Shown: one piece after another, positions 1,296 through 40,319 of the stretch | How the letters are laid out: the number at the start of each line of letters is the position of its first letter | Numbering within the stretch: the first letter of the stretch is position 1 | The notes under the pieces: model-generated | Told to the model about the DNA's origin: nothing | The model's input: the letters and a program-made list of their open reading frames with translations, nothing else | Databases searched by the model: none | Source: a virus | Direction: 5' to 3' (one strand) | IMG/VR virus record: IMGVR_UViG_3300045988_118194 | Location: 1-64,000 of that record | Length of the DNA stretch: 64,000 bases | Translations under genes and position numbers: made by a program

Positions 1296-2093
1296 ATGAT
1301 AACATCGGTAAAAATAAAAGACAATACAAAAACTCCATTTGAATATGTTTCGGATATAGAAGCATTTGAAAATGGCAGAGAATTTATTTTCAAGTCAGGA
1401 GTGAATGTAATTATAGGTAAAAACGGTAGTGGAAAATCAACCTTACTTAACATCATATCAATGTATGCGTTATGCGAGAAATCCATGTGCTCTGAAATGC
1501 CGACCGAGGCACTGGATTTTCCACCTATATTTGATGACGATGATAAGGTTTTTGATGGGATTGATATATCATCCGATTATGCAGGGAAAGTATTCCGTTT
1601 ATTGCCATCGGCGGAGATGAATCAAGATAGCGTATTGAAAAACATCAGCAACTTAGATTTGTATGTGAATAATATTCGAAGATCTTATGGAGAGAAAGTG
1701 GTGTTATCATTGGAATCGCTTTTCAATTTAATGTTCGGTCAAAAGGATTATACATTTCCAATACAAGATCTTGTAGAATACAAGAAAAAATCAAATGCGT
1801 TTTGGATTAAAAGAGTTGATAACCTGTTGAAGTATTATAAAAGAAACCGCATAACATTAACAGAAAGCAGTTTTGAATACACGGTTCTCATGGATGAGCC
1901 AGATAGGAATCTTGACATTGACAACATAATGCAAATTTATAATGTATTGTCATTCCATAAACCACAAACACAAATTATAGCCATAGTACACAATCCGGCG
2001 TTGATTTACAAGTTAAGCAAATTAGATTGTGTGAATTTCATAGAGATGACAGAAGGATATCTAAACAAAATTCGCATATTTGCATCTAATTAA
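1296..2093 (+). CDS. small P-loop NTPase, ABC/AAA_21-like (OLD/RecF-like ATPase fold)
   Basis: Walker A GKNGSGKSTLLN near the N-terminus. Walker B-like VLMDEPDRNLD and a following IIAIVHNP (H-loop-like) near the C-terminus. 265 aa with no fused effector domain. Confidence 0.6.
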   Translation: MITSVKIKDNTKTPFEYVSDIEAFENGREFIFKSGVNVIIGKNGSGKSTLLNIISMYALCEKSMCSEMPTEALDFPPIFDDDDKVFDGIDISSDYAGKVFRLLPSAEMNQDSVLKNISNLDLYVNNIRRSYGEKVVLSLESLFNLMFGQKDYTFPIQDLVEYKKKSNAFWIKRVDNLLKYYKRNRITLTESSFEYTVLMDEPDRNLDIDNIMQIYNVLSFHKPQTQIIAIVHNPALIYKLSKLDCVNFIEMTEGYLNKIRIFASN

Positions 2094-2133
2094 TTGAAGT
2101 AATTATATACCATTTTTTTATAAACTTATCACA

Positions 2134-2517
2134 ATGGCTTATTTCATATTAATGGGAAGAAGAATCCCCAAGCAAGCTATAACAGGCTTCAAGTTCCAAA
2201 ATGAAACAGATAACATTCGTCCTTTTCTGTCAATCAGGATAAGGGGAAAGGACGAAATTATACCTTTCAAAGATAAAAAGGAGATACAGTCTGTAAAAGC
2301 GCATCTGTGTTCTGTCTTCTCCGGATTTGTAAAAATAGGCGACTGGTATCTCAAGATGTCGGAAGTTAAGGAATATAAGCCGGTGACTGCCGAAGACATG
2401 AACCCCTACATCTTGTTTAAGACATCTAAGTTCGGAAACATAAAAGTTCGTTTCCCGAAAGATGAAGATATGGATGCCGAATTATTGGTGTTAGATCAAC
2501 TTTTTGATGTAGAATGA
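2134..2517 (+). CDS. hypothetical protein (127 aa), possible partner of the upstream ATPase
   Basis: ORF immediately downstream of the ATPase on the same strand. Confidence 0.4.
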   Translation: MAYFILMGRRIPKQAITGFKFQNETDNIRPFLSIRIRGKDEIIPFKDKKEIQSVKAHLCSVFSGFVKIGDWYLKMSEVKEYKPVTAEDMNPYILFKTSKFGNIKVRFPKDEDMDAELLVLDQLFDVE

Positions 2518-2541
2518 ATTATTGATCATATTTTAGAAATC

Positions 2542-2793
2542 ATGACCTGGAAAGAATTGAAAGACAAAATATCCCTTATGACAGAAGAAGAGCAACAGAA
2601 AGAAGTTGCAGTCTGGGGAGAAAATATGAATCTAATGAAAGATTGTTCCTTGGAGAAAACAGACGAGGATTTGTACTATAATACTGAATGGGATTATACT
2701 TGTGAAGAGAGTGAATTGGAACCGGAAGACAAGAATGACCCTGATGTACATAAGGTATATGAAGCAGGAATGCATTATATTTATTCAAATTGA
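2542..2793 (+). CDS. small highly acidic protein (83 aa)
   Basis: D/E-rich composition (EEEQQKE, DEDLYY, EESELEPEDKNDPD). ATG start. Confidence 0.35.
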   Translation: MTWKELKDKISLMTEEEQQKEVAVWGENMNLMKDCSLEKTDEDLYYNTEWDYTCEESELEPEDKNDPDVHKVYEAGMHYIYSN

Positions 2794-2811
2794 TTTAAAA
2801 AAGATCTGATT

Positions 2812-3210
2812 ATGGCAGTATTAACAACACTAAATATAACGGAAAAGAATGATAACAACAGTTTATCTGTAACTGTTAAAGTGAATATCACCAAAAAAGG
2901 AATGGTTACCACTACTTTATCAAAAGAAGATGTGGATAAGATTCGTTCTTATGGGATCAAATTACCTACAAACAGATTAGGTAACGAAGGATATTTCAAT
3001 AGCACATCATTTTCTGATCTGGTGAGTCAAATCAGGGAAGTTCTGAAGAGATGTTTGAGTTATAAAATAGTAGAAGAAGTACCTGTTATTAAGTATCAGT
3101 TAGAAACTCTCTGTTCATTTGCCTATGACAAAAACGGAGACATTGTCCCTAACCCCTCTAAGGAATGGACAGGAGGCGATGAAAATGGAGAGATGGAACT
3201 TCCCGTTTAG
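2812..3210 (+). CDS. hypothetical protein (132 aa)
   Basis: ORF with ATG. Followed by a hairpin (ttaaacac...gtgtttat) just after the stop. Confidence 0.4.
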   Translation: MAVLTTLNITEKNDNNSLSVTVKVNITKKGMVTTTLSKEDVDKIRSYGIKLPTNRLGNEGYFNSTSFSDLVSQIREVLKRCLSYKIVEEVPVIKYQLETLCSFAYDKNGDIVPNPSKEWTGGDENGEMELPV

Positions 3211-3704
3211 ATGCCTTAAACACCCAACCTTTCGGTTTTAGTGTTTATGCAAAACCATTTCTAAAAAGAGTAATTGAATATGGAAATGGAGAGACAAAAG
3301 TAGAATACGGCAGGTTAAATACAGAAAAAGGAACTTATGCGCACTGGCTGAATTGTGTAACGAGCATATCATACAATAGACATAAACAGGTAATGGAAGT
3401 GGAGTGTAACGAATGTACCTCGAAATTATTCGTTGATATGATCAAGTCCATTTGTAATATAAGCGAACAAGTTAAGAGTTTTGTCAATCCAGAACAAATA
3501 AAAGCAATTGCGGAGTCAAATGAACCGATTTTGCTTTTATCTAACAACTAAAAAATCATGAGGTATGTATGTGTTTTTATCTGCTTTCTGTTATGGCTTA
3601 TTTTTACATTGTTATTATCATCAACTGTCATAGGATTGGTTATAAGCGTGAGTGATGAATGACAGGAAATGGGTGACAAAATAATAGATAAACTTTAATA
3701 AAAT

Positions 3705-3950
3705 ATGAATAAGAATATAATCAACAACGCTCAACTTTTAGAGATTAAAACTAAGATTAGACAACTTGGAGCAATGATGAATGCATATCAATGCAGGTTT
3801 GTGGTTTCTTCGGGTCAATTGTTTTTTGTGGATGATGAATATGCTGGAACGGTTAAACTGACTAATCTTGATAATGGAGAATCTAACATATCATTCCCTT
3901 CATGTGACGATGGATTGATAATCAATCCAGCCGATAAGCATATTAAATAA
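3705..3950 (+). CDS. hypothetical protein (81 aa)
   Basis: ORF, ATG start. Confidence 0.3.
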   Translation: MNKNIINNAQLLEIKTKIRQLGAMMNAYQCRFVVSSGQLFFVDDEYAGTVKLTNLDNGESNISFPSCDDGLIINPADKHIK

Positions 3951-3994
3951 TTTCAAAACTAAAAATATTTAAATTAATTAAACAATAATAAGAT

Positions 3995-4261
3995 ATGAAA
4001 CAAGATATAGAATTTGCTGTTCCTCTTTTTAAAGCTGGTGCAGAATGGCGCATTAACAGCGTGTGGCATTCTATAACAGTAATTCCAGATTGCCACCGTT
4101 TTATTGTGTTTCTCCCTAAGAAATCAACAATAGGATCAAAGAATCCAATTATGGGTATATTGGAAGAGAACAGAACTTTTATATCCAGCCGTCCAGGATG
4201 TATTTTATGCAGATTAGATGAAATGGAATCATGGGCTTATTTGGATGATCTATTACCTTAG
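3995..4261 (+). CDS. hypothetical protein (88 aa)
   Basis: ORF, ATG start. Confidence 0.3.
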   Translation: MKQDIEFAVPLFKAGAEWRINSVWHSITVIPDCHRFIVFLPKKSTIGSKNPIMGILEENRTFISSRPGCILCRLDEMESWAYLDDLLP

Positions 4262-4294
4262 GTAATTATATACTCAATTTTAAAAGTTAGAATT

Positions 4295-4543
4295 ATGAAA
4301 AAAGATTTAACAGACAAAGAAAAAGAGGAAAGAATGAATTACCTTACCATTCATAAATGTAAAAACGAGGATGAACGTAAAGAGTTAAAAGAATTATGTG
4401 ATTGGTATTTTAAGGATACTCCTACATTAACTATGTCTTTTTCTTTAACAGAAGAAGATTTTCGGGTAACAATGGAAAGGGACGTGGAGTTGTCGGAGGT
4501 AGCCAGAGCGGTAAAGAATCAACACCATAAGAAGAAAATTTGA
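4295..4543 (+). CDS. hypothetical protein (82 aa)
   Basis: ORF, ATG start, charged composition. Confidence 0.3.
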   Translation: MKKDLTDKEKEERMNYLTIHKCKNEDERKELKELCDWYFKDTPTLTMSFSLTEEDFRVTMERDVELSEVARAVKNQHHKKKI

Positions 4544-4549
4544 AAGGTT

Positions 4550-4753
4550 ATGACCGACAGAGAACTTCTTGAAGAAAACAATAAGATGTTAAAGGAAATT
4601 CTAAGTTTTGTGAGAAAAGTTGATTCTGCTGAATACAGGGATCATCAAGACTTTATGGAATTTCTTAGAAATGTGGCAGCCGATATATGGGTAGAATATA
4701 CGGAGCCTGAACAAAGAGGTAGATTGTTTAATTTAATAAATAAAAAGAAATGA
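4550..4753 (+). CDS. hypothetical protein (67 aa)
   Basis: ORF 6 nt after the previous stop. ATGA overlap with the next ORF. Confidence 0.3.
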   Translation: MTDRELLEENNKMLKEILSFVRKVDSAEYRDHQDFMEFLRNVAADIWVEYTEPEQRGRLFNLINKKK

Positions 4754-4935
4754 AAACAGTTTTTGATTTAAGCAGAGATGAGATTGTGTCATTGACAGAC
4801 GAAGAGATAAGTCTGTATATAGACAAAGAGCTTGCTGGTAAAGGTATTCCAATTGAAGCTAAAAACTGGAATATAAAGAACGAAAAAGAAGTCGTGTATC
4901 CAAGAACAGGAGTTCCAGTATTTATGATTATTTAA
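4750..4935 (+). CDS. hypothetical protein (61 aa)
   Basis: ORF overlapping the previous stop (ATGA). Confidence 0.25.
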   Translation: MKTVFDLSRDEIVSLTDEEISLYIDKELAGKGIPIEAKNWNIKNEKEVVYPRTGVPVFMII

Positions 4936-5011
4936 CCAACAAAACCACCATACTTTAGAAGGTGGATGAATTGGTTTGATTAATTTTGAATCAAAATTAC
5001 AGATAAAAAAA

Positions 5012-6151
5012 ATGATTTCATACAAATACAACATCTATCATTCCAAGAAAACGAAGTATCTCGACAAAATGCTTCGAGAATGTTGTTTTGTATGGAATCA
5101 TGCTTTAGCTCTACAACGTAGATACTACAAACTGTTTGGAAAATATATCTCAGTTAGTAAAATGAAAAAGCATTTTGCAAAAAGGATAAAAAGAAATCTT
5201 CTTCATTCCCAAACAGTGCAAGAAATACTTGAACGTCTTGATGAATCTTATAATCGTTTCTTCAAGAAATTGGCTAAACGACCTCCTAAGTTTAAATCAC
5301 CGGAAAAATTCAATTCTTTTGTATTCAAACAAGGTGGGTTTACCCTGAATGGTAATTGTTTAACAATTAACAAAGGGAAGAAACGATTTAGATTTTCATA
5401 CAGTAGAGTCTACGAAGGTAATGTTAAACAAATTAGAATAGTTAGAGAAACATGCTATCGATATAGCCTGATAATTATTACAGATCATAATCTTATAAAC
5501 TCTTATAGAAAGACACATGATGGTGCATCTATAGGGTTGGATTTTGGCCTGAAAACTTATCTAACTAAAAGCGATGGTAGCAAAATTGATTCTCCACTAT
5601 TCTTCAAACAATATCAAAACAAGATTAGAAAACTAAACAAACGGATTTCTAATGCAAAGAAAGGATCCAACAATAGAAGAAGGAGACTGTTTGAACTCCA
5701 ACAAACGTATCGTAAAATAAACGATCTTCGATCGGATTTTCAATGGGGATTAGCACACCAGTTATGCAAACAATATGATTATATTTTTATTGAAGATCTA
5801 AACATTGAAGGAATGAAGCGTTTGTGGGGAAAGAAAGTTTCTGATCTCAGTCATTCTTCTTTTATTGACAAACTTACGTATGTTGCTTCAAAGTATGGAG
5901 TAACGATACACAAGATTGACAAATGGTATCCTTCTTCCAAAACTTGCGAATGTGGCTGCATTAATAAAGGACTGTCGTTACGCGACCGCACGTGGGTATG
6001 CCCGTCGTGCGGAGCGGTAAACGACCGTGATGTTCTTGCAGCCCGTAATATACTTCGGAAGGGCATTTCCGAATTGGAGAGCAAGAGTAATTCCAGCGAT
6101 ATTAATATCGGGGTTTCTTGCGTTTGTATCCAAGAATCCCATTTGCTTTAG
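5012..6151 (+). CDS. tnpB: TnpB (OMEGA RNA-guided RuvC endonuclease, IS200/IS605 OrfB family)
   Basis: N-terminal KYNIYHSKK...CCFVWNHAL resembles the TnpB N-terminus. RuvC-I GLDFGLKTY. RuvC-II IFIEDLNIEGMK. Zinc finger CECGC...CPSCG. RuvC-III NDRDVLAARNI. The track ORF starts at TTG 4976; the first ATG is at 5012. Confidence 0.8.
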   Translation: MISYKYNIYHSKKTKYLDKMLRECCFVWNHALALQRRYYKLFGKYISVSKMKKHFAKRIKRNLLHSQTVQEILERLDESYNRFFKKLAKRPPKFKSPEKFNSFVFKQGGFTLNGNCLTINKGKKRFRFSYSRVYEGNVKQIRIVRETCYRYSLIIITDHNLINSYRKTHDGASIGLDFGLKTYLTKSDGSKIDSPLFFKQYQNKIRKLNKRISNAKKGSNNRRRRLFELQQTYRKINDLRSDFQWGLAHQLCKQYDYIFIEDLNIEGMKRLWGKKVSDLSHSSFIDKLTYVASKYGVTIHKIDKWYPSSKTCECGCINKGLSLRDRTWVCPSCGAVNDRDVLAARNILRKGISELESKSNSSDINIGVSCVCIQESHLL

Positions 6152-6200
6152 CGATGGGAGTGTGTCAACGGCATCGGTTTTAGAACCATAGAAGGTGCAA
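6000..6200 (+). ncRNA. putative TnpB-associated omega RNA (3' end of tnpB plus the right-end region). The extent is a guess.
   Basis: Expected position for a TnpB omega RNA. A hairpin at 6138-6158 overlaps the tnpB stop, followed by a 55-nt non-coding stretch before the next gene. Confidence 0.3.
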
Positions 6201-6205
6201 CTGAG

Positions 6206-6649
6206 GTGGCTAATTTGCTTGTTAAATATAATGCATTTAAAATAGAATCAAGGTTTCTGACAGGATCGTATGAACAGTTTTGGATCATAAAAGAAAGTGT
6301 TTGCCCGGCTATTAAAGGGGAAGCGGGGTATAGCAAAGAAGAGTTTGATAAGGTAAACAAGGAAAACCAAGATCCAGAATTGGAAAGTATAAATTCCTTC
6401 AATAACACTTTGAAAAATGCCAATGAAATTAAAGACAGGGTGTTGAAATACGTGTACAACATAAAACAAGAGCGTTCATATAACAATGACCTGGTTGGTA
6501 TCTTTGAAAGGTATAAAGATATAGCAGACGGTGATATGGAGGTAGCTATGAATTTTATTAAGGAAGCCTATCCATTCAATGAAGAAACAGAGTCGTTTAT
6601 CAGAAAAAAGTTTGACATGCCTATACCGGACGAATCAAAAGAGCAGTAA
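6206..6649 (+). CDS. hypothetical protein (147 aa)
   Basis: ORF, ATG start. Confidence 0.4.
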   Translation: MANLLVKYNAFKIESRFLTGSYEQFWIIKESVCPAIKGEAGYSKEEFDKVNKENQDPELESINSFNNTLKNANEIKDRVLKYVYNIKQERSYNNDLVGIFERYKDIADGDMEVAMNFIKEAYPFNEETESFIRKKFDMPIPDESKEQ

Positions 6650-6668
6650 TTAAGCTAAATTAAATCAT

Positions 6669-6704
6669 TTTGAATCTTTTTTATTATCAAAAGACATATC
6701 TTTG
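6669..6704 (+). promoter_or_regulatory. candidate Bacteroidetes-type promoter (-33 TTTG ... -7 TAtcTTTG)
   Basis: TTTG at about 6669-6672 and TATCTTTG at about 6697-6704, upstream of ATG 6726. The 24-nt spacer is slightly long. Confidence 0.25.
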
Positions 6705-6725
6705 CCCCAAAAAAAAACAAACATA

Positions 6726-6980
6726 ATGGAAGAAAAAGAGATAAAAGAAGCTATGATTGAAGCCCTGACGCACTTAGAGGGGTGTAAGTATTTCGTGGCT
6801 ACGATAGTAAATGAAGAGGAAAGAAGATTTGATATGAGCCAAAGAATGTCACAGCATCAATTGGCGTTAGTTATAAAAGGTATCTTATCTAATAATGAGA
6901 TGATGATGATGGACGTTTTGCAGTGGTGTTCTGAAAGATTTAAAAATAGTATAGAGAAAGGAAAGAAATCAACTAATTAA
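6726..6980 (+). CDS. hypothetical protein (track ORF 6702..6980; first ATG 6726)
   Basis: ORF. Met-rich stretch NNEMMMMD. Confidence 0.35.
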   Translation: MEEKEIKEAMIEALTHLEGCKYFVATIVNEEERRFDMSQRMSQHQLALVIKGILSNNEMMMMDVLQWCSERFKNSIEKGKKSTN

Positions 6981-6991
6981 ATATTAATACA

Positions 6992-7462
6992 ATGAATCGC
7001 TGGTTTGAAATTACGGTAAAAGCCGAGATTGATAATATCGAGAACGGCAAAAAAAAGAAAGTAACTGAAAAGTATTTGGTGGATGCCTTGTCTTACACAG
7101 AGGCAGAATCAAGATCGTTGGAGATCTTCAAGGATTTGTACAAATCTTTCGAGGTTGTAAAAATTAATCCTATTAAAGTGTCGGAAATCTTCTTCAACGG
7201 AGAAGCTGAGTACTGGTATAAGTGTAAGGTGAATTACATTACACTGGATGAAAAGAAAGGTAAAGAAAAGAAAACTCCATGCTATATGTATATCCAGGCC
7301 GGCAATCCTAAGGATGCCGAAGCTGTGTTGACTAAAGGTATGCAGGGTACGTTAGGAGACTGGAATTGCGAGTCTATTGTGGAAACGAAAATCATTGAAG
7401 TGTTTAAATACGATCTGCAAAAAGGCGTAGAAAAATTGGGAGAAAAGAAAACTGATGAGTGA
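6992..7462 (+). CDS. hypothetical protein (156 aa)
   Basis: ORF, ATG start. Confidence 0.4.
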   Translation: MNRWFEITVKAEIDNIENGKKKKVTEKYLVDALSYTEAESRSLEIFKDLYKSFEVVKINPIKVSEIFFNGEAEYWYKCKVNYITLDEKKGKEKKTPCYMYIQAGNPKDAEAVLTKGMQGTLGDWNCESIVETKIIEVFKYDLQKGVEKLGEKKTDE

Positions 7463-7706
7463 TGTTGTTCCCCGTGTAGCACTTGCGACAGCAATTGTAT
7501 TATTGGTAGTGGCAGGTGCTACTTTACTGATAGTGATTAAGACAGAAGAAGTGCCAAGATGGTTAATGAACTTACCATATACGCTGTCTTTAACGGCGTT
7601 ATCTTTTTCAAGTATATCGCTTATATCTAAATACATATCGCTTGTATCGAAATATAAAAAGTGGAAAAGAAATTGTACGTCTGCGAAAAATGCGGACGAA
7701 AAGTAA
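7455..7706 (+). CDS. small membrane protein with two predicted TM helices and a basic C-tail (holin-like topology)
   Basis: Hydrophobic segments VALATAIVLLVVAGATLLIV and LPYTLSLTALSFSSISLI, then KYKKWKRN. Overlaps its neighbours. Confidence 0.3.
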   Translation: MSDVVPRVALATAIVLLVVAGATLLIVIKTEEVPRWLMNLPYTLSLTALSFSSISLISKYISLVSKYKKWKRNCTSAKNADEK

Positions 7707-8176
7707 TGATAAGAAGTCATGGCTTATGCCAGGCTTGCAGGAGCAAAGAGTTGACTCCGAAGAAAAAAGACAGAATTACATCCATTAAAAACAGCAGCAA
7801 GAAGAAAAAGTTAGAGAACCCGGATTTATCCGGGTTTTTTCGTCTTATGTTGGAGGAGTTGAGTACTATTCGAATGTCTATGACCGGTAAGGCTATTCAT
7901 TTTCCTACAGTATGTAACGTATGTCACATACTTCCGAAAAGGATATATAAGTCGGTTGCTACTTGCAGGGATAATATAGTTTTCCTTCATGAATCGGAGC
8001 ATACGGTATTCGACATGTATCTTGACCGGATGGAATTTGATAAACTTGAAACAGAATTTCCTTTTGTGTGGAAGTATGCGGTAAAGAAGGTACTGGATAT
8101 GGAAAGCAGGGGAATGATTAAAGAAAGAGGTAGATTAATTATTGAAATAATTGACAGATATGAGAAAACTTTATAA
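7661..8176 (+). CDS. zinc-ribbon plus HNH-like protein (possibly NinG/Rap-like)
   Basis: N-terminal CEKCG...CQAC. Later CNVCHILPK...NIVFLHESEH resembles an HNH-type His/Asn arrangement. Confidence 0.3.
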   Translation: MEKKLYVCEKCGRKVMIRSHGLCQACRSKELTPKKKDRITSIKNSSKKKKLENPDLSGFFRLMLEELSTIRMSMTGKAIHFPTVCNVCHILPKRIYKSVATCRDNIVFLHESEHTVFDMYLDRMEFDKLETEFPFVWKYAVKKVLDMESRGMIKERGRLIIEIIDRYEKTL

Positions 8177-8332
8177 AATAAGAATAGAAGCTGACGATGA
8201 AACTATCTTTTATGCTCACATACGAAGAGAGAGTTATGGCAAGGATATAGCTATCGCAGTGAAAGATAGAGATAAAGATGAAGTGGAAACAGTGTTACAT
8301 TGTATTAAAGAAGAATTGATTAGAGGAAGATC

Positions 8333-9649
8333 ATGAAAGAGAAAATAAAAATATTGACAGATTTAGGGTTTGCGCCTATGGTAGAAGGAGAAGGAAATAC
8401 GTTGTTTAGAATGAACGATGTTGTGATGTCGGTGTCAGATCCTAACCAAACACCAGAGCAGTTGAAGAAGGAGGTTATGTCTTTAATAAAGAACAGAGAC
8501 ATAGCGGAAAGAGGTGGACAGGTTCCAGTAGTTGAAGAGCCGGCGCCTGAGCCAGAGCAGGCCCAGGGAGAAGAACCGGAAGCTCCGGCAGAGGAAGCAG
8601 ATCCTAACCCTGGAGAGGAAGATTCGAATCCGTTTACAGAAAATCAGGAAACGTTAGAGCCGTTTTATATCTGTGATGAGTTAAAGAAGATTGAGACTCC
8701 CAAATTCGTAAGATTGACATTAGACGATAATCGTTTTTATGTAAGGAAGATGGATGATGGGACGGCCAAGATATATGCTTCAGTAACAACTTTAATCAAA
8801 GATGGGTATGTAGATGATAAGACCGCACTTCAGGAATGGAAGCAAGAGATGAAGATGCTTGGTCGCAATCCGGAAGAGGTGGCGCAGTATGAAGCTGATA
8901 AGGGAACGATCATGCACTACTTATACGGATTGTACCTAACAGGTAGAGATATGGTCTTAAATCGAAGTTTTATAGTTAAGACCGTACAAGAAGGTAAGCT
9001 GAAGATATCGAAGAAAAATCTTGACCGATTCTTTAATAGCATAGATGATCTTGATGATATGATTGTCAGAATTATGAAGTTTGCCAAATTTTGTTCAGAG
9101 TATAAGGTTAAGCCGATGATGATTGAAAGAATATTGTCATTAGAGGACTATTTGGTAGCTACGCCGATAGATGCGATGGTTAAAATGACATTCAAATACA
9201 AAGAAGAAGGTTATTTTGGAGCCGTGTATCAAAGGGCCACAGGGCAGTTCAAAAAAGGTGATCCGAAGAAGGAGGTAAGAGACGTGGAGAAGGAAGAAGT
9301 GGTTATTCTCGACTTTAAATCAGGGGGAATATGGGAATCATACGCATTTCAATTAGAAGCTGAAAGAAGAATGGTTAAAGCATGGTATGGGATTGATGCA
9401 CGTATTATGAACTTTTCTCCAAAAAGCACGAGCAGCAAAGGATATACGTTGAAAGAATGGACAGAAGACAGTATAGCACTTGAAAAGGCGGACTGCGTGT
9501 TCCAACAAGGAATGTTGAATCACCTTAGAAAAGATAAGAAGTTCAAAGTGAGAAAAGGAGTGCTGAATATCAATAAGCCGTACAATGAAGAGGATCATAC
9601 GGTCGTGTATGATATTGCAGAGGAAATGTCTAAAAGATTCATAATATGA
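8333..9649 (+). CDS. putative PD-(D/E)XK-family nuclease with an acidic Pro/Glu-rich linker
   Basis: PIDAMVKM (motif II-like Asp) followed about 50 aa later by VVILDFKSG (D-x-K motif III-like). Linker PAPEPEQAQGEEPEAPAEEADPNPGEE. Confidence 0.4.
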   Translation: MKEKIKILTDLGFAPMVEGEGNTLFRMNDVVMSVSDPNQTPEQLKKEVMSLIKNRDIAERGGQVPVVEEPAPEPEQAQGEEPEAPAEEADPNPGEEDSNPFTENQETLEPFYICDELKKIETPKFVRLTLDDNRFYVRKMDDGTAKIYASVTTLIKDGYVDDKTALQEWKQEMKMLGRNPEEVAQYEADKGTIMHYLYGLYLTGRDMVLNRSFIVKTVQEGKLKISKKNLDRFFNSIDDLDDMIVRIMKFAKFCSEYKVKPMMIERILSLEDYLVATPIDAMVKMTFKYKEEGYFGAVYQRATGQFKKGDPKKEVRDVEKEEVVILDFKSGGIWESYAFQLEAERRMVKAWYGIDARIMNFSPKSTSSKGYTLKEWTEDSIALEKADCVFQQGMLNHLRKDKKFKVRKGVLNINKPYNEEDHTVVYDIAEEMSKRFII

Positions 9650-19490: not shown

Positions 19491-19816
19491 AAGAAGATCT
19501 AATATGTGGAGTAGCGATCCTTTTGTATTTAGTTTTATTATACTTGCTCACGACAGCTTTCATAAAAACAGGTAGAGCAGTAGATCGTTATAAGATGAAG
19601 AAGAAAACTGACAAAATCAAAGTAGGTCAAAGATACGAACATAAGAACTACTTTGAGGATCCATTTGAAAGAGGCAAGCATGTGATTAAGATATTAGACA
19701 TAAAAGAAGGGTACGCTCTATATGAGTACGAAGAAAAACTATATATACGTTCTTCTGTGAGTCTTGAAGATATTGTTAAAAGATATGTTTTAATTACTGA
19801 TGTTAAACACAAGTAA
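19487..19816 (+). CDS. small membrane protein (single N-terminal TM helix)
   Basis: VAILLYLVLLYLLTTAFI hydrophobic helix, then a basic region. Confidence 0.35.
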   Translation: MKEDLICGVAILLYLVLLYLLTTAFIKTGRAVDRYKMKKKTDKIKVGQRYEHKNYFEDPFERGKHVIKILDIKEGYALYEYEEKLYIRSSVSLEDIVKRYVLITDVKHK

Positions 19817-36654: not shown

Positions 36655-37001
36655 ATGACAAACATTTCTTTCAAGATACTATTTTGTATGCTATATATCA
36701 ATTTCATCCCATCTCTATCATATACGTCAAAAAAGGATTCACTTAAGTTCTTTGGATTTACATTCAGTTGAATTATGCAATTACCGGTATAAACCTTAAT
36801 TCCGTAATTATCAGAGTATATATCTTGCATAGTCTCAAATGTCTCAATTAAATTTTCAACAAGGACTCTGTTAAATGAAAAAGGTTCTTTACCATTACCT
36901 TTAAATGTGATATGATCTAAATTTATGTTGTCAAATTCATACTCTAACTGATTGCCGTCCATCATATTATAAATGATTGACTTTCTGATTATAAATCCCA
37001 T
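36651..37001 (-). CDS. hypothetical protein (116 aa)
   Basis: ORF with ATGA overlap. Confidence 0.35.
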   Translation of the reverse strand: MGFIIRKSIIYNMMDGNQLEYEFDNINLDHITFKGNGKEPFSFNRVLVENLIETFETMQDIYSDNYGIKVYTGNCIIQLNVNPKNLSESFFDVYDRDGMKLIYSIQNSILKEMFVI

Positions 37002-37361: not shown

Positions 37362-38582
37362 TTACTTTAATATAATCGGATGCCTCTTCCCTCTAATGAG
37401 TTTAAACTTTTTGCGTGAAACATCTTTTGAATTTTCTCCGTTGAAATCCCTGATATTGAAACTCCCTGATTTTCTCCTTCCATAAACAAAGAATATTTTA
37501 TTGTTATACAACACTTTATCAAACAACCTAAAACCGAAAACCTCAAAAGGAGCTTGATTGTTTTTCTTCTTCCCCCCTTTTAAAATTTTCATTTTATGTA
37601 TTTGTCTATTATGTCTACGAATTAAACGTTTTAAATATTGACGTTCGATTCGTTTCGCATTAATATTCTTAGAAATGACAAACGCGTCGGATGTATGGGA
37701 TTTTTCAATCCCATATTTAATCCGATTATGTTTCGTAATGTAACCAAACGTCATAAAAACTCTGTCGTATCTGGATTTTAACTCTTCATACAACCTCCAT
37801 TTCATAATTCCCATTACGGCTGCGTCGCGAAGCGACTTGCCTCTTCTGATCTTTAAATCTATATTACCTTTATGGTATTCTTTGTGACATGTTTCACATA
37901 AAGTTATAAGATTAGAAGGGGAATCCCCTCCGGTTTTTCGAGACTCAATATGATGAACATTCAGTATAGAATCTTTTGACTTGCCTTTACAATACTGGCA
38001 TTTATGTCCATCTCTTGCTAAAACATACTCCCTTGTGTTCCAAAACTCAAGTTGATCACCTTCCTGGTATTCTTTACCTGATATCTCAGGATTCTTAATC
38101 TTTTGAGTATCGAATTGAGCTACTTCAATAACAATACGAAATATTGGTAGTATAGAGCATACATTATCAATAACACGAATATGGGCGTCTATTTTGTACT
38201 TCACCGAAGGTGCTGTCCATCCTGGACGCTTGCTTTTTATTCTATTATTAAAACGAGGTTTTCTATATCTTAACCTGTTCCGTCTTGCTCTTCGTAGCTC
38301 CCTTCTGGTAGACAAAAGATCTACGATATCATTTCTAAGGATCACTTCACTACTGTAAAGTTCTTTGCTTTTCGTTGTAGCTGATAGACCAACATGCTTA
38401 GTTCCAGCATCAACGCCTAACACAATTTCTTGTTTGTAATCGGATGTGACGTACATTAATTTGATGGTAAACGGACATAGGTTCACAACGACTGCCTTTT
38501 TATCTTTAAGCAGTCTCCTAACCTTACCATGCCTCGTTGTTGGCATCATAGGTTTACCATTTATGTCTTGTACGTACACCAT
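37362..38582 (-). CDS. iscB: IscB (OMEGA RNA-guided nuclease; RuvC split by an HNH insertion; Cas9 ancestor family)
   Basis: N-terminal PLMP-like GKPMMPTTRHGKVRRLLK. RuvC-I VLGVDAGTKHVG. Arg-rich bridge helix RRELRRARRNRLRYRKPR. RuvC-II IVIEVAQFD. HNH HKCQYCKGKS...NVHHIESRKTGGDSPSNLITLCETCHKEYH. RuvC-III HTSDAFVI. Confidence 0.75.
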   Translation of the reverse strand: MVYVQDINGKPMMPTTRHGKVRRLLKDKKAVVVNLCPFTIKLMYVTSDYKQEIVLGVDAGTKHVGLSATTKSKELYSSEVILRNDIVDLLSTRRELRRARRNRLRYRKPRFNNRIKSKRPGWTAPSVKYKIDAHIRVIDNVCSILPIFRIVIEVAQFDTQKIKNPEISGKEYQEGDQLEFWNTREYVLARDGHKCQYCKGKSKDSILNVHHIESRKTGGDSPSNLITLCETCHKEYHKGNIDLKIRRGKSLRDAAVMGIMKWRLYEELKSRYDRVFMTFGYITKHNRIKYGIEKSHTSDAFVISKNINAKRIERQYLKRLIRRHNRQIHKMKILKGGKKKNNQAPFEVFGFRLFDKVLYNNKIFFVYGRRKSGSFNIRDFNGENSKDVSRKKFKLIRGKRHPIILK

Positions 38583-38930
38583 ATCTACAAACGTTTTTAA
38601 TGTTTATTCAACATAAATCAGGAATATTTCATCCTGTTAGTACCCATCGCCAATGTTATAAGAGGTTTACTTGCAGGCAACACTGTTTCACCAAATATAC
38701 TACTCCTGTTTAATCGCTTGCCTTAGGGCTACGGACTTGGGCAAACATCCGTAGGTAACTATCTATTCTCAAATAACGTAGCCTTCGTTTCAAGGCTTAG
38801 GCTAATATCCGGACCATTTATGGTACATTAAAACCTTATAATGAAATTATATTGTTTTAATGTTATTTCGGATATATATACTTTTTACCCCAATCGATTC
38901 TTTTTATCTTACGACCTAATTTAAGCCGTT
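38583..38930 (-). ncRNA. candidate IscB omega RNA scaffold (the guide is expected at its 5' end, the high-coordinate side)
   Basis: 358-bp non-coding gap immediately 5' of iscB, where IscB omega RNAs are encoded. Relatively GC-rich. Hairpin ctacgga-N12-tccgtag at 38719-38744 and gccttagg/aaggcttaggc complementary segments. Confidence 0.45.
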
Positions 38931-39650: not shown

Positions 39651-40319
39651 CTATACTTTCTTTATCCTACAATACAAACCCCACAAAAACTCAGCGGAGA
39701 AACTATCCCATACATTATTCTTCTGCCAAAGTTCTACTTTGTTAACAAACCAAGACCATATGGGACCATCATATGAAGAATCAGATGATGATCCCAATCC
39801 GATTTTCTCCATTTCATTCGCCACATCAGAATAAGGATCTAAATCGACTCCCCTAATCATGTTAATAATATCATCCTTGTCTAACGTAAATTGAAACCGC
39901 TCCTTGTTAGTAGGCGGATCTTGATTCAATTTACCAGTCGCAAGCCATTCTCCATCATGATACAATTCGGCAAGTTTCTTTACCTTATTTTTAAGAAAAG
40001 AATACTCTTGTATGACTTCCATAAAGTCAGCTTCGTTAGCTTTACCCTCTATGAAGATAACGGTTTTGCTTCCAGGTCTATGATCGTCTAAGCTTGCCGG
40101 GATTCCTAATATCGTCCATCCTTTAAACTCAGCTATCTTAAAACGCATAACGTCAAACACCTTATAGAAATCATCACAATCTATAGATTCTATTACCTTA
40201 ATATCCTCTTCCGTAAATTTACCTCGTATTGGAATAACGTGATGACCAGGACATCCATCGGTTCCGAAATATGCAATTCTAACCATATCATCTACAATTT
40301 TACGATTTTTGCAAAACAT
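39651..40319 (-). CDS. hypothetical protein (222 aa)
   Basis: ORF. Confidence 0.45.
   Translation of the reverse strand: MFCKNRKIVDDMVRIAYFGTDGCPGHHVIPIRGKFTEEDIKVIESIDCDDFYKVFDVMRFKIAEFKGWTILGIPASLDDHRPGSKTVIFIEGKANEADFMEVIQEYSFLKNKVKKLAELYHDGEWLATGKLNQDPPTNKERFQFTLDKDDIINMIRGVDLDPYSDVANEMEKIGLGSSSDSSYDGPIWSWFVNKVELWQKNNVWDSFSAEFLWGLYCRIKKV

Follow-up and report, generated by a model that had tools for sequence, protein, structure and literature searches.

The first 64,000 nucleotides of IMG/VR virus record IMGVR_UViG_3300045988_118194 (hereafter the window, the whole stretch of DNA analysed, to whose first letter all coordinates refer) contain a 1,243 nt insertion that encodes a TnpB protein and splits a conserved gene of the early region. 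We interpret this insertion, with a probability of about 0.88, as a non-autonomous TnpB-only element of the IS200/IS605 family that has IS608-type ends, an intact TnpB and omega RNA (ωRNA), and a guide that has become uncoupled from the transposon-adjacent motif (TAM). The element itself is a well-behaved member of its family; its value lies in the natural experiment that surrounds it, since there are hundreds of close gut-phage genomes in which the same sites are found occupied, empty, deleted or decayed.

The source is an Epsilon crAss-like gut phage, and its closest deposited genome is that of phage crAssE-Sib (human gut, GenBank OR575929, 151 kb; the GenBank record gives the name as csAssE-Sib). 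TnpB genes are already known from this phage clade, having been entered only as transposases in crAssE-Sib and other Epsilonunovirus genomes (PMC11054128); the ends, TAM, ωRNA, empty sites and flank deletions are not in that paper. The crAssE-Sib tnpB copy (WOZ57285.1) occupies a different locus and shares 76% DNA identity with the window element, and the crAssE-Sib allele of the gene that is split in the window is intact. Relatives of the window tnpB were gathered by a protein-based scan of IMG/VR, which found 309, spread over more than 25 sites; identity among the best 80 is 89-99%, and these sit in phage contigs of up to ~160 kb, with no more than 3 copies per contig. Empty-site alleles were drawn from 164 IMG/VR relatives of the interrupted gene, the best 80 of which were retrieved and compared.

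Element ends and the interrupted gene

Window positions 4514-4926 and 6169-8000 align to two stretches of crAssE-Sib that adjoin each other inside a single 222-residue gene (WOZ57363.1), and homology to both crAssE-Sib and the ~80 wild-type alleles breaks off at 4925 and restarts at 6169. The gene is uninterrupted in all 80 retrieved relatives, so that at least 80 relatives lack the tnpB reading frame at this position; its product has no Pfam or PHROG match. An initial annotation of the window, made from the sequence alone, had placed the element at 4945-6210 and had looked to empty sites in related phages for its exact ends; that comparison yielded 4926-6168. The remaining features are collected in Table 1.

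Table 1. Coordinates of the element, its components, the split gene and the second OMEGA system in the window
Feature	Position	Strand	Basis
TnpB-only IS608-like element, 1,243 nt	4926..6168	+	Empty sites; ends common to 165 related copies
TTAT target and TAM (left cleavage site, C_L), directly 5' of left end	4922..4925	+	33/33 left flanks
Left end: spacer, G_L, IP_L and second small hairpin TTGATT/AATCAA	4926..5011	+	Sequence and DNA fold
N-terminal fragment of split gene: 59 residues of its own, followed by II and a stop that the element's left end supplies	4750..4935	+	Alignment to WOZ57363.1
C-terminal part of split gene; first possible start GTG 6206	6169..6649	+	Alignment, uninterrupted alleles
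tnpB coding sequence, 379 aa, ATG 5012	5012..6151	+	Family matches, ISDra2 alignment, motifs
ωRNA scaffold (predicted), 116 nt, 5 helices; overlaps last 33 tnpB codons and stop; includes G_R, IP_R, C_R	6053..6168	+	Covariation, mini-elements, synonymous divergence
Predicted 16 nt guide CGGCATCGGTTTTAGA, host-gene DNA abutting right end	6169..6184	+	Conservation stops at 6168
IscB open reading frame, RRXRR (200 bits) and HNH	37362-38582	-	Domain matches
HEARO RNA, 95.5 bits (gathering score 83), full-length model	38636-38875	-	Directly upstream of IscB, same strand

The boundaries agree with what is seen across the family. On the right, sequence conservation among related copies ends at ...GAGTRTGTCAA and the DNA downstream varies by site; on the left, all 33 distinct flanks carrying the window's left-end type (type 1) end in TTAT, followed by G. 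Because empty sites have a single G after TTAT (window 19699 and 47023, and L166, the flank-identical empty partner of the filled allele L007), the element begins with that G and no target sequence was duplicated. In these empty-site comparisons, L166/L007 included, exactly the element separates a filled allele from an empty one, and an inverted-repeat search gave no pair marking both ends. Insertion immediately 3' of TTAT, without target duplication, thus split a conserved early-region gene, whose C-terminal fragment in the window is, over 312 nt, 100% identical to at least 10 uninterrupted alleles.

Both ends have the geometry of IS608. On the left, a 19 nt spacer (4926-4944) separates TTAT from the left imperfect palindrome (IP_L, 4945-4965, CCACC/GGTGG, from reading of the sequence and a DNA fold), with the left guide tetranucleotide (G_L, AAAA) at 4941-4944. 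On the right, the corresponding guide (G_R, GAAT, 6134-6137) precedes the right imperfect palindrome (IP_R, 6138-6158, CCCAT/ATGGG), and the right cleavage-site sequence (C_R, TCAA, 6165-6168) closes the element 10 nt past the IP_R foot. A CTTTAG loop is common to IP_L and IP_R, the two subterminal hairpins that the initial annotation had located precisely. In IS608, the left cleavage site TTAC sits 19 nt 5' of the IP_L foot, right cleavage falls 10 nt 3' of the IP_R foot, the guides are AAAG (G_L) and GAAT (G_R), and the final base of G_L pairs with position -1 of the target (PMC3201880, PMC5934647); AAAA instead of AAAG is therefore the change expected with TTAT instead of TTAC as target. 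Judged by its sequence, the element belongs to the IS200/IS605 family and is IS608-type in every testable respect save the absent tnpA, and the window copy is a new non-autonomous (IS608-like) member of that family. Its earlier classification as a TnpB-only IS200/IS605 element accordingly holds, on the geometry of the ends, the empty sites and the lack of a TnpA within the element.

Neither a Y1 HUH motif screen nor tblastn with related TnpA found a TnpA in the window, and there is no space for a Y1 TnpA gene inside 4926-6168. The same motif screen and tblastn identified, in 13 loci that were fetched, Y1 proteins adjoining related copies of tnpB and its ωRNA; one relative-borne TnpA scores 135 bits against Pfam Y1_Tnp. 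Since the window lacks a TnpA while related copies carry a Y1 transposase, we regard the window copy as non-autonomous. In the autonomous relatives (e.g. L003:300-760 [GenBank:MT839900.1] and 12 other loci) the Y1 tnpA is divergent from tnpB, and the left end has a palindrome CCCCTC...GAGGGG, a G_L of AAAG, a 14 nt spacer and TTAC as TAM. A second TnpB-only sub-type, with a left end akin to that of the autonomous relatives and unlike the window's, also uses TTAC.

Two repeats near the ends were considered as possible target-selection signals and set aside. The related motifs tagaaggtgg and tagaaggtgc had been noted near both putative ends, but the copy at 6189-6198 belongs to the host gene, beyond the limits of the element, and empty alleles have it too; a match of at least 9 nt between the 40 nt right flank and the element arises at ~20% of random TTAT sites, and the pair is attributed to chance. 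A 12 nt exact direct repeat (TGTATCCAAGAA), found at 4895-4906 in the host-gene left flank and at 6125-6136 in the ωRNA region 5' of IP_R, is probably due to chance as well; left-flank matches of at least 12 nt occur at 0.8% of TTAT sites drawn at random from the window, and such matches are not enriched at other insertion sites.

TnpB, the ωRNA scaffold and its predicted guide

All of the TnpB motifs quoted in the initial annotation are present in the tnpB reading frame, with the RuvC motifs intact and in order, and family matches and alignment to ISDra2 TnpB agree with the assignment. A longer, TTG-started frame from 4976 has no support among relatives. The protein matches Pfam OrfB_IS605 (64 bits), Cas12f1-like_TNB (73 bits) and, weakly, HTH_OrfB_IS605, scores 243 bits against NCBIfam guided_TnpB (cut-off 100), and belongs to PHROG 506 (transposase). 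Residues 11-352 align with ISDra2 TnpB (8EXA/8BF8; phmmer against PDB, E = 2.5e-29), and in this alignment the catalytic D-E-D of ISDra2 corresponds to D177 (GLDFG), E261 (IEDLN) and D338 (NDRDV). The zinc finger noted earlier as CxxC...CxxC does exist, but only its second knuckle (C-P-S-C) has that form, the first being C-E-C-G-C (CxCxC).

Across the family, tnpB reads as a gene under purifying selection. It is intact in 96 of 108 distinct full-length copies, D-E-D is kept in all 95 TnpB copies of the same length, and the median ratio of non-synonymous to synonymous polymorphism (pN/pS) between family copies and the window copy is 0.15. A TldR-type or otherwise nuclease-dead domesticated TnpB is ruled out by this conservation of D-E-D together with the more than 25 insertion sites. 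The alternative of a type V (Cas12f-like) CRISPR-Cas system was likewise rejected, as no CRISPR-like repeat array was found within 2000-9000 and NCBIfam type V scores fall far under their cut-offs.

The expected location of an ωRNA at the 3' end of tnpB is borne out, but not its proposed reach of about 50 nt downstream: the predicted scaffold ends 17 nt past the tnpB stop, exactly at the right end of the element, and the last helix, whose sequence is that of IP_R, has the stop codon in its loop. Rfam returned no ωRNA or intron family at gathering thresholds, nor at E<=1 over 4850-6300, so the covariance-model search envisaged in the initial annotation came back empty and the scaffold is supported instead by covariation in our own alignment. 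This alignment comprises 24 distinct versions, with pairing scored on a structure that we specified. Pairing holds in 96.8% of cells, and changes on both sides are seen in 19 of the 35 pairs, compared with at most 6 such pairs in slid controls. For covariation the alignment scores 0.291 where shuffles score 0.134 (0/500 reach the observed value). Synonymous divergence of tnpB drops from 0.30 upstream to 0.078 across the 34 codons shared with the scaffold.

Of 140 distinct hits to the ωRNA motif, 14 are mini-elements that lack TnpB and consist of a left end plus the last ~116-122 nt of the element. The complete scaffold in these minis suggests that they can still borrow TnpB in trans. They are ~170-210 nt long, with the left end joined straight to the scaffold at CTTCGG, and occur with the type-1 left end (L198, L205, L246, L249, L257) and with a type-2 left end (L175, L180, L187); further examples are found at L006:2440-2613, at L006:~4850-5030, in L005, in MT835674 and in several IMG/VR contigs. 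Two of the minis belong to the isolated Parabacteroides phage PF672P1. The ωRNA motif as a whole was detected in at least 120 IMG/VR stretches versus 4 contigs, each from a metagenome-assembled genome, in a set of 185,579 species genomes of bacteria and archaea. The lineage is essentially phage-borne, and lies almost entirely in Epsilon crAss-like gut phages.

The predicted guide had been placed just outside the right end, which is correct, and its first base is 6169 as the element ends at 6168. The sole other match to CGGCATCGGTTTTAGA within the window has 3 mismatches.

Loss of right-flank DNA and possible movement between phages

The DNA abutting the right end of the window copy differs from that of its sisters. 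In each of 7 other sequences that have the element or a remnant of it at the same TTAT, the terminal TCAA is followed by GTTAAAAGATATCGGCATCGG, and in the window by CGGCATCGG; the window right flank is missing four codons (12 nt, GTTAAAAGATAT) that are present in 80/80 uninterrupted alleles and in the 7 sister alleles. L291 has a right end identical to the window's and a right flank 99.4% identical to it, with the 12 nt retained, and the window allele is therefore an L291-type allele minus GTTAAAAGATAT. Because L291 has the same flank background with the 12 nt intact, a donor-to-recipient switch at the right junction (the footprint of aberrant homing) was rejected. The deletion leaves the right-end boundary exact, with no microhomology at the junction (TCAA, then GTTAAAAGATAT, then CGGC), which makes slippage an unlikely cause.

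This loss changes the relation between guide and target. In the wild-type allele that is common, the sister-copy guide GTTAAAAGATATCGGC comes right after TTAT. The window guide CGGCATCGGTTTTAGA does match wild-type alleles of related phages, as the initial annotation had thought worth checking, but in the 82 alleles concerned it follows ATAT (57) or ATGT (25), never TTAT. The guide thus has no TAM-adjacent wild-type match because the 12 nt beside the right end were deleted after insertion, and on this comparison the window copy is probably no longer able to home to its original site, although its nuclease gene is intact.

Two decayed remnants of the same insertion were seen at the same gene: L293 (an ERZ1505083 contig) retains the last ~265 nt of the element, and in L294 [GenBank:UMLQ01004356.1] ~43 nt of right-end sequence abut DNA that matches window ~4157, a deletion of the equivalents of window ~4160-6125 that includes three small genes.

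Losses beside the right end recur throughout the family. For each copy we measured the distance between its left and right flanks in unoccupied genomes, and found a gap of 0 nt at six sites and of 5, 42, 87, 114, 189, 190, ~200, 256, 269, 296, 491 and 865 nt elsewhere. At seven sites one left flank is paired with two or three right flanks, and never one right flank with several left flanks; since only the right flanks vary per left flank, the losses lie on the right-end side. In wild-type sequence, TTAT or TTAC stands directly 5' of the point where the new right junction lies in 17-18 of 19 cases, the background of these two motifs together being 0.0136 per position. Such TAM-to-TAM right-side deletions are commoner than precise insertion (~13 sites versus 6).

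Loci with right-side deletions include L024/L032/L045, L015, L012, L035/L039/L055 and L009/L076, among others. The window itself holds unoccupied versions of sister-phage insertion sites, at 19699 (-), 47023 (+), 4104/4105 (+), 27067 (-), 44576 (-), 39830-40020 (-) and 36788-36990 (-), with TTAT or TTAC directly 5' of the sister copies' right flanks; some sister copies are without 189-296 nt that the window retains at these sites. When L084 is compared with L081, one copy is seen to carry the terminal GTCAA twice in tandem at the right junction (GTCAA, then GTCAAGATCTC), a further small rearrangement located exactly at the TnpA cleavage site.

Y1 TnpA cuts exactly 3' of its target motif, the position at which the new right junctions lie, and ISDra2 TnpB cuts 15-21 bp from its TAM. 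We tentatively suggest, at slightly less than even odds, that resident elements repeatedly delete right-side DNA through an in-cis TnpA reaction that reprograms the guide, and that the 12 nt lost from the window represent an off-target case at ATAT. In such a reaction TnpA bound to the resident ends would cut both TCAA and a target motif a short way downstream, the right-end 3'-OH would be joined to the DNA past that motif, and the interval would be released. As the guide is the DNA abutting the right end, it would change with each deletion; each event would give TnpB a new TAM-flanked guide and erode a phage gene, while the event in the window, having ended at the near-motif ATAT, would have left a guide without a TAM-flanked target. 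Right-side deletions might alternatively arise when two copies lying close together recombine. We found no description of adjacent deletions by IS200/IS605 elements in the searchable literature. If it is true, the TnpA reaction would account both for the turnover of TnpB guides over time and for the erosion of host genes by the elements.

In the life cycle that we propose for the element on the model of published TnpB and IS608 mechanisms, TnpB would process its own transcript into an ωRNA whose ~16 nt guide comes from the host DNA past the right end. The TnpB-ωRNA complex would cut TTAT followed by a guide match, a target found where a sister phage or a co-infecting phage carries the unoccupied allele, and recombinational repair would copy the element into the cut allele (homing). 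Moves to new TTAT sites would need Y1 TnpA supplied in trans by autonomous relatives. The window copy and L007 bear on the homing step: their elements are 98.9% identical and their right flanks 88.8% identical over 312 nt, and each flank type has near-identical uninterrupted counterparts. With ~1,200 TTAT sites on both strands of the window, extrapolated to ~2,800 per 150 kb genome, independent insertions at the same TTAT are unlikely, and the identity pattern suggests that the element was copied between diverged alleles.

The interrupted gene has sharply different allele families (88% versus 100% identity over 312 nt; window 6169-6480 compared with L007/L008 and L143-type alleles), and these are shuffled among otherwise similar phages, suggesting frequent recombination in the early region. 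TTAT-to-TTGT variants recur at the TAM of unoccupied sites (~7 sites; loci L087-L166 and others) and might reflect escape from insertion or cleavage. An excess of TAM polymorphism in unoccupied alleles, as would be expected from escape from homing, was weak and non-significant (TAM position -2, 6/26 sites) and is not claimed.

Several considerations must temper the interpretation of the window copy as a homing element with an uncoupled guide. The use of a TAM by TnpB is deduced from insertion sites, and RNA processing and cleavage by this element are predictions from its sequence. Ordinary recombination in the flanks would give the same pattern of element and flank identity. TnpB might tolerate ATAT as a TAM, in which case the window copy could still home. 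Lastly, the deletion junction is known from the window sequence alone, being absent from IMG/VR and JGI (Joint Genome Institute) metagenome searches, and may be an assembly artefact.

The alternative that fares best is that the window copy is an evolutionary dead end, coding but incapable of homing or transposition and headed for decay. It is a possibility that we lean against. The guide match lies beside ATAT or ATGT in 82/82 wild-type alleles seen, the window is without a TnpA by motif screen and tblastn, truncated remnants of the same insertion exist (L293, L294) and the 12 nt deletion junction is a singleton, all of which fit such an end. However, the reading frame is intact, 98.9% identical to sister copies and in possession of its catalytic triad, co-infecting relatives may supply TnpA in trans, and ATAT or ATGT may be tolerated as a TAM. 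A dead end also overlaps the explanation that we prefer, a non-autonomous element with an uncoupled guide, rather than excluding it.

Less probable by a clear margin of our own judgement is that the phage retains TnpB as a weapon, whose RNA-guided cuts would destroy or exclude co-infecting competitors that have the uninterrupted allele, as with phage homing endonucleases; the concept has been discussed (PMC13565253). The near-confinement of the lineage to phages, the match of sister-copy guides to the common wild-type allele beside TTAT and the purifying selection on tnpB would all suit this role. It is nonetheless difficult to reconcile with the highly variable locations of the element and its absence from this site in most relatives, with insertions that disrupt and delete phage genes in the manner typical of a selfish element, and with a window guide that has no TAM-flanked target.

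We dismiss as very improbable that the insert is spliced out like an intron or IStron, leaving the split gene able to make its full-length protein, or that read-through of TAG 6149-6151, all that stands between tnpB and the C-terminal fragment in the same frame, fuses the two products: IStrons combining TnpB with a group I intron are known (PMC10690162), but no group I or II intron or other Rfam family was found in 4850-6300 even at E<=1, just 86 nt lie upstream of tnpB within the element, a shared frame arises by accident 1 time in 3, and the genetic code is standard, with long reading frames unbroken and TAG an ordinary stop in 7 of 34 of them.

A second OMEGA system and comparison with known systems

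The initial annotation had also reported an IscB, and both the IscB gene and its HEARO RNA are confirmed in the window. By these domain and RNA-family matches, two OMEGA systems (TnpB and IscB) are present in one phage genome. A promoter and terminator scan gave nothing informative.

Sequence comparison within this phage population is enough to yield the ends, the TTAT/TTAC target motif, a compact ~116 nt ωRNA and a trans-acting TnpA, and the relatives in sister phages illustrate element movement, deletion of flanking DNA and guide change. The population is also a setting in which RNA-guided homing between co-infecting phages is testable. The small TnpB (379 aa), short scaffold and 4 nt TAM could interest genome-editing groups.

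Among known systems, IS608 of Helicobacter pylori has ends like those of the window element. Both are built for single-strand 'peel and paste' movement, with imperfect palindromes in subterminal position, neither inverted repeats nor target duplication, a tetranucleotide 19 nt 5' of the IP_L foot, a TCAA end 10 nt 3' of the IP_R foot and a G_R of GAAT. The left guide fits the target by the same rule in both (AAAG/TTAC in IS608, AAAA/TTAT in the window). The window copy differs in being without tnpA, in its TTAT rather than TTAC target and in residing in a crAss-like phage genome, not a bacterial chromosome. The TnpB-ωRNA of Deinococcus radiodurans ISDra2 is alike in its D-E-D, in an ωRNA that runs from the 3' end of tnpB into the right end, and in a guide taken from the flank; unlike ISDra2, with its TAM of TTGAT, the system described here has an apparent TAM of TTAT, a shorter scaffold (~116 nt) and a CxCxC first knuckle. 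ISDra2 TnpB has been defined biochemically and structurally, whereas the window system is known only through its sequence.

IS1341-type TnpB-only elements, and the palindrome-associated and miniature inverted-repeat transposable element (PATE/MITE) derivatives, are similarly non-autonomous and depend on TnpA in trans, and TnpB-less minis of ~200 nt occur in the same phages as the element described here; unlike PATE/MITE derivatives, these minis retain a complete, covarying ωRNA scaffold. The free-standing and intron-borne homing endonuclease genes of T4-like phages provide a parallel of a different kind, in that a nuclease gene occupies a fixed site in some members of a population, with predicted cutting of the unoccupied allele in co-infecting relatives and copying by recombination. 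Here, however, recognition would depend on an RNA guide and a TAM instead of protein recognition, and the element can also transpose and interrupts its host gene without splicing.

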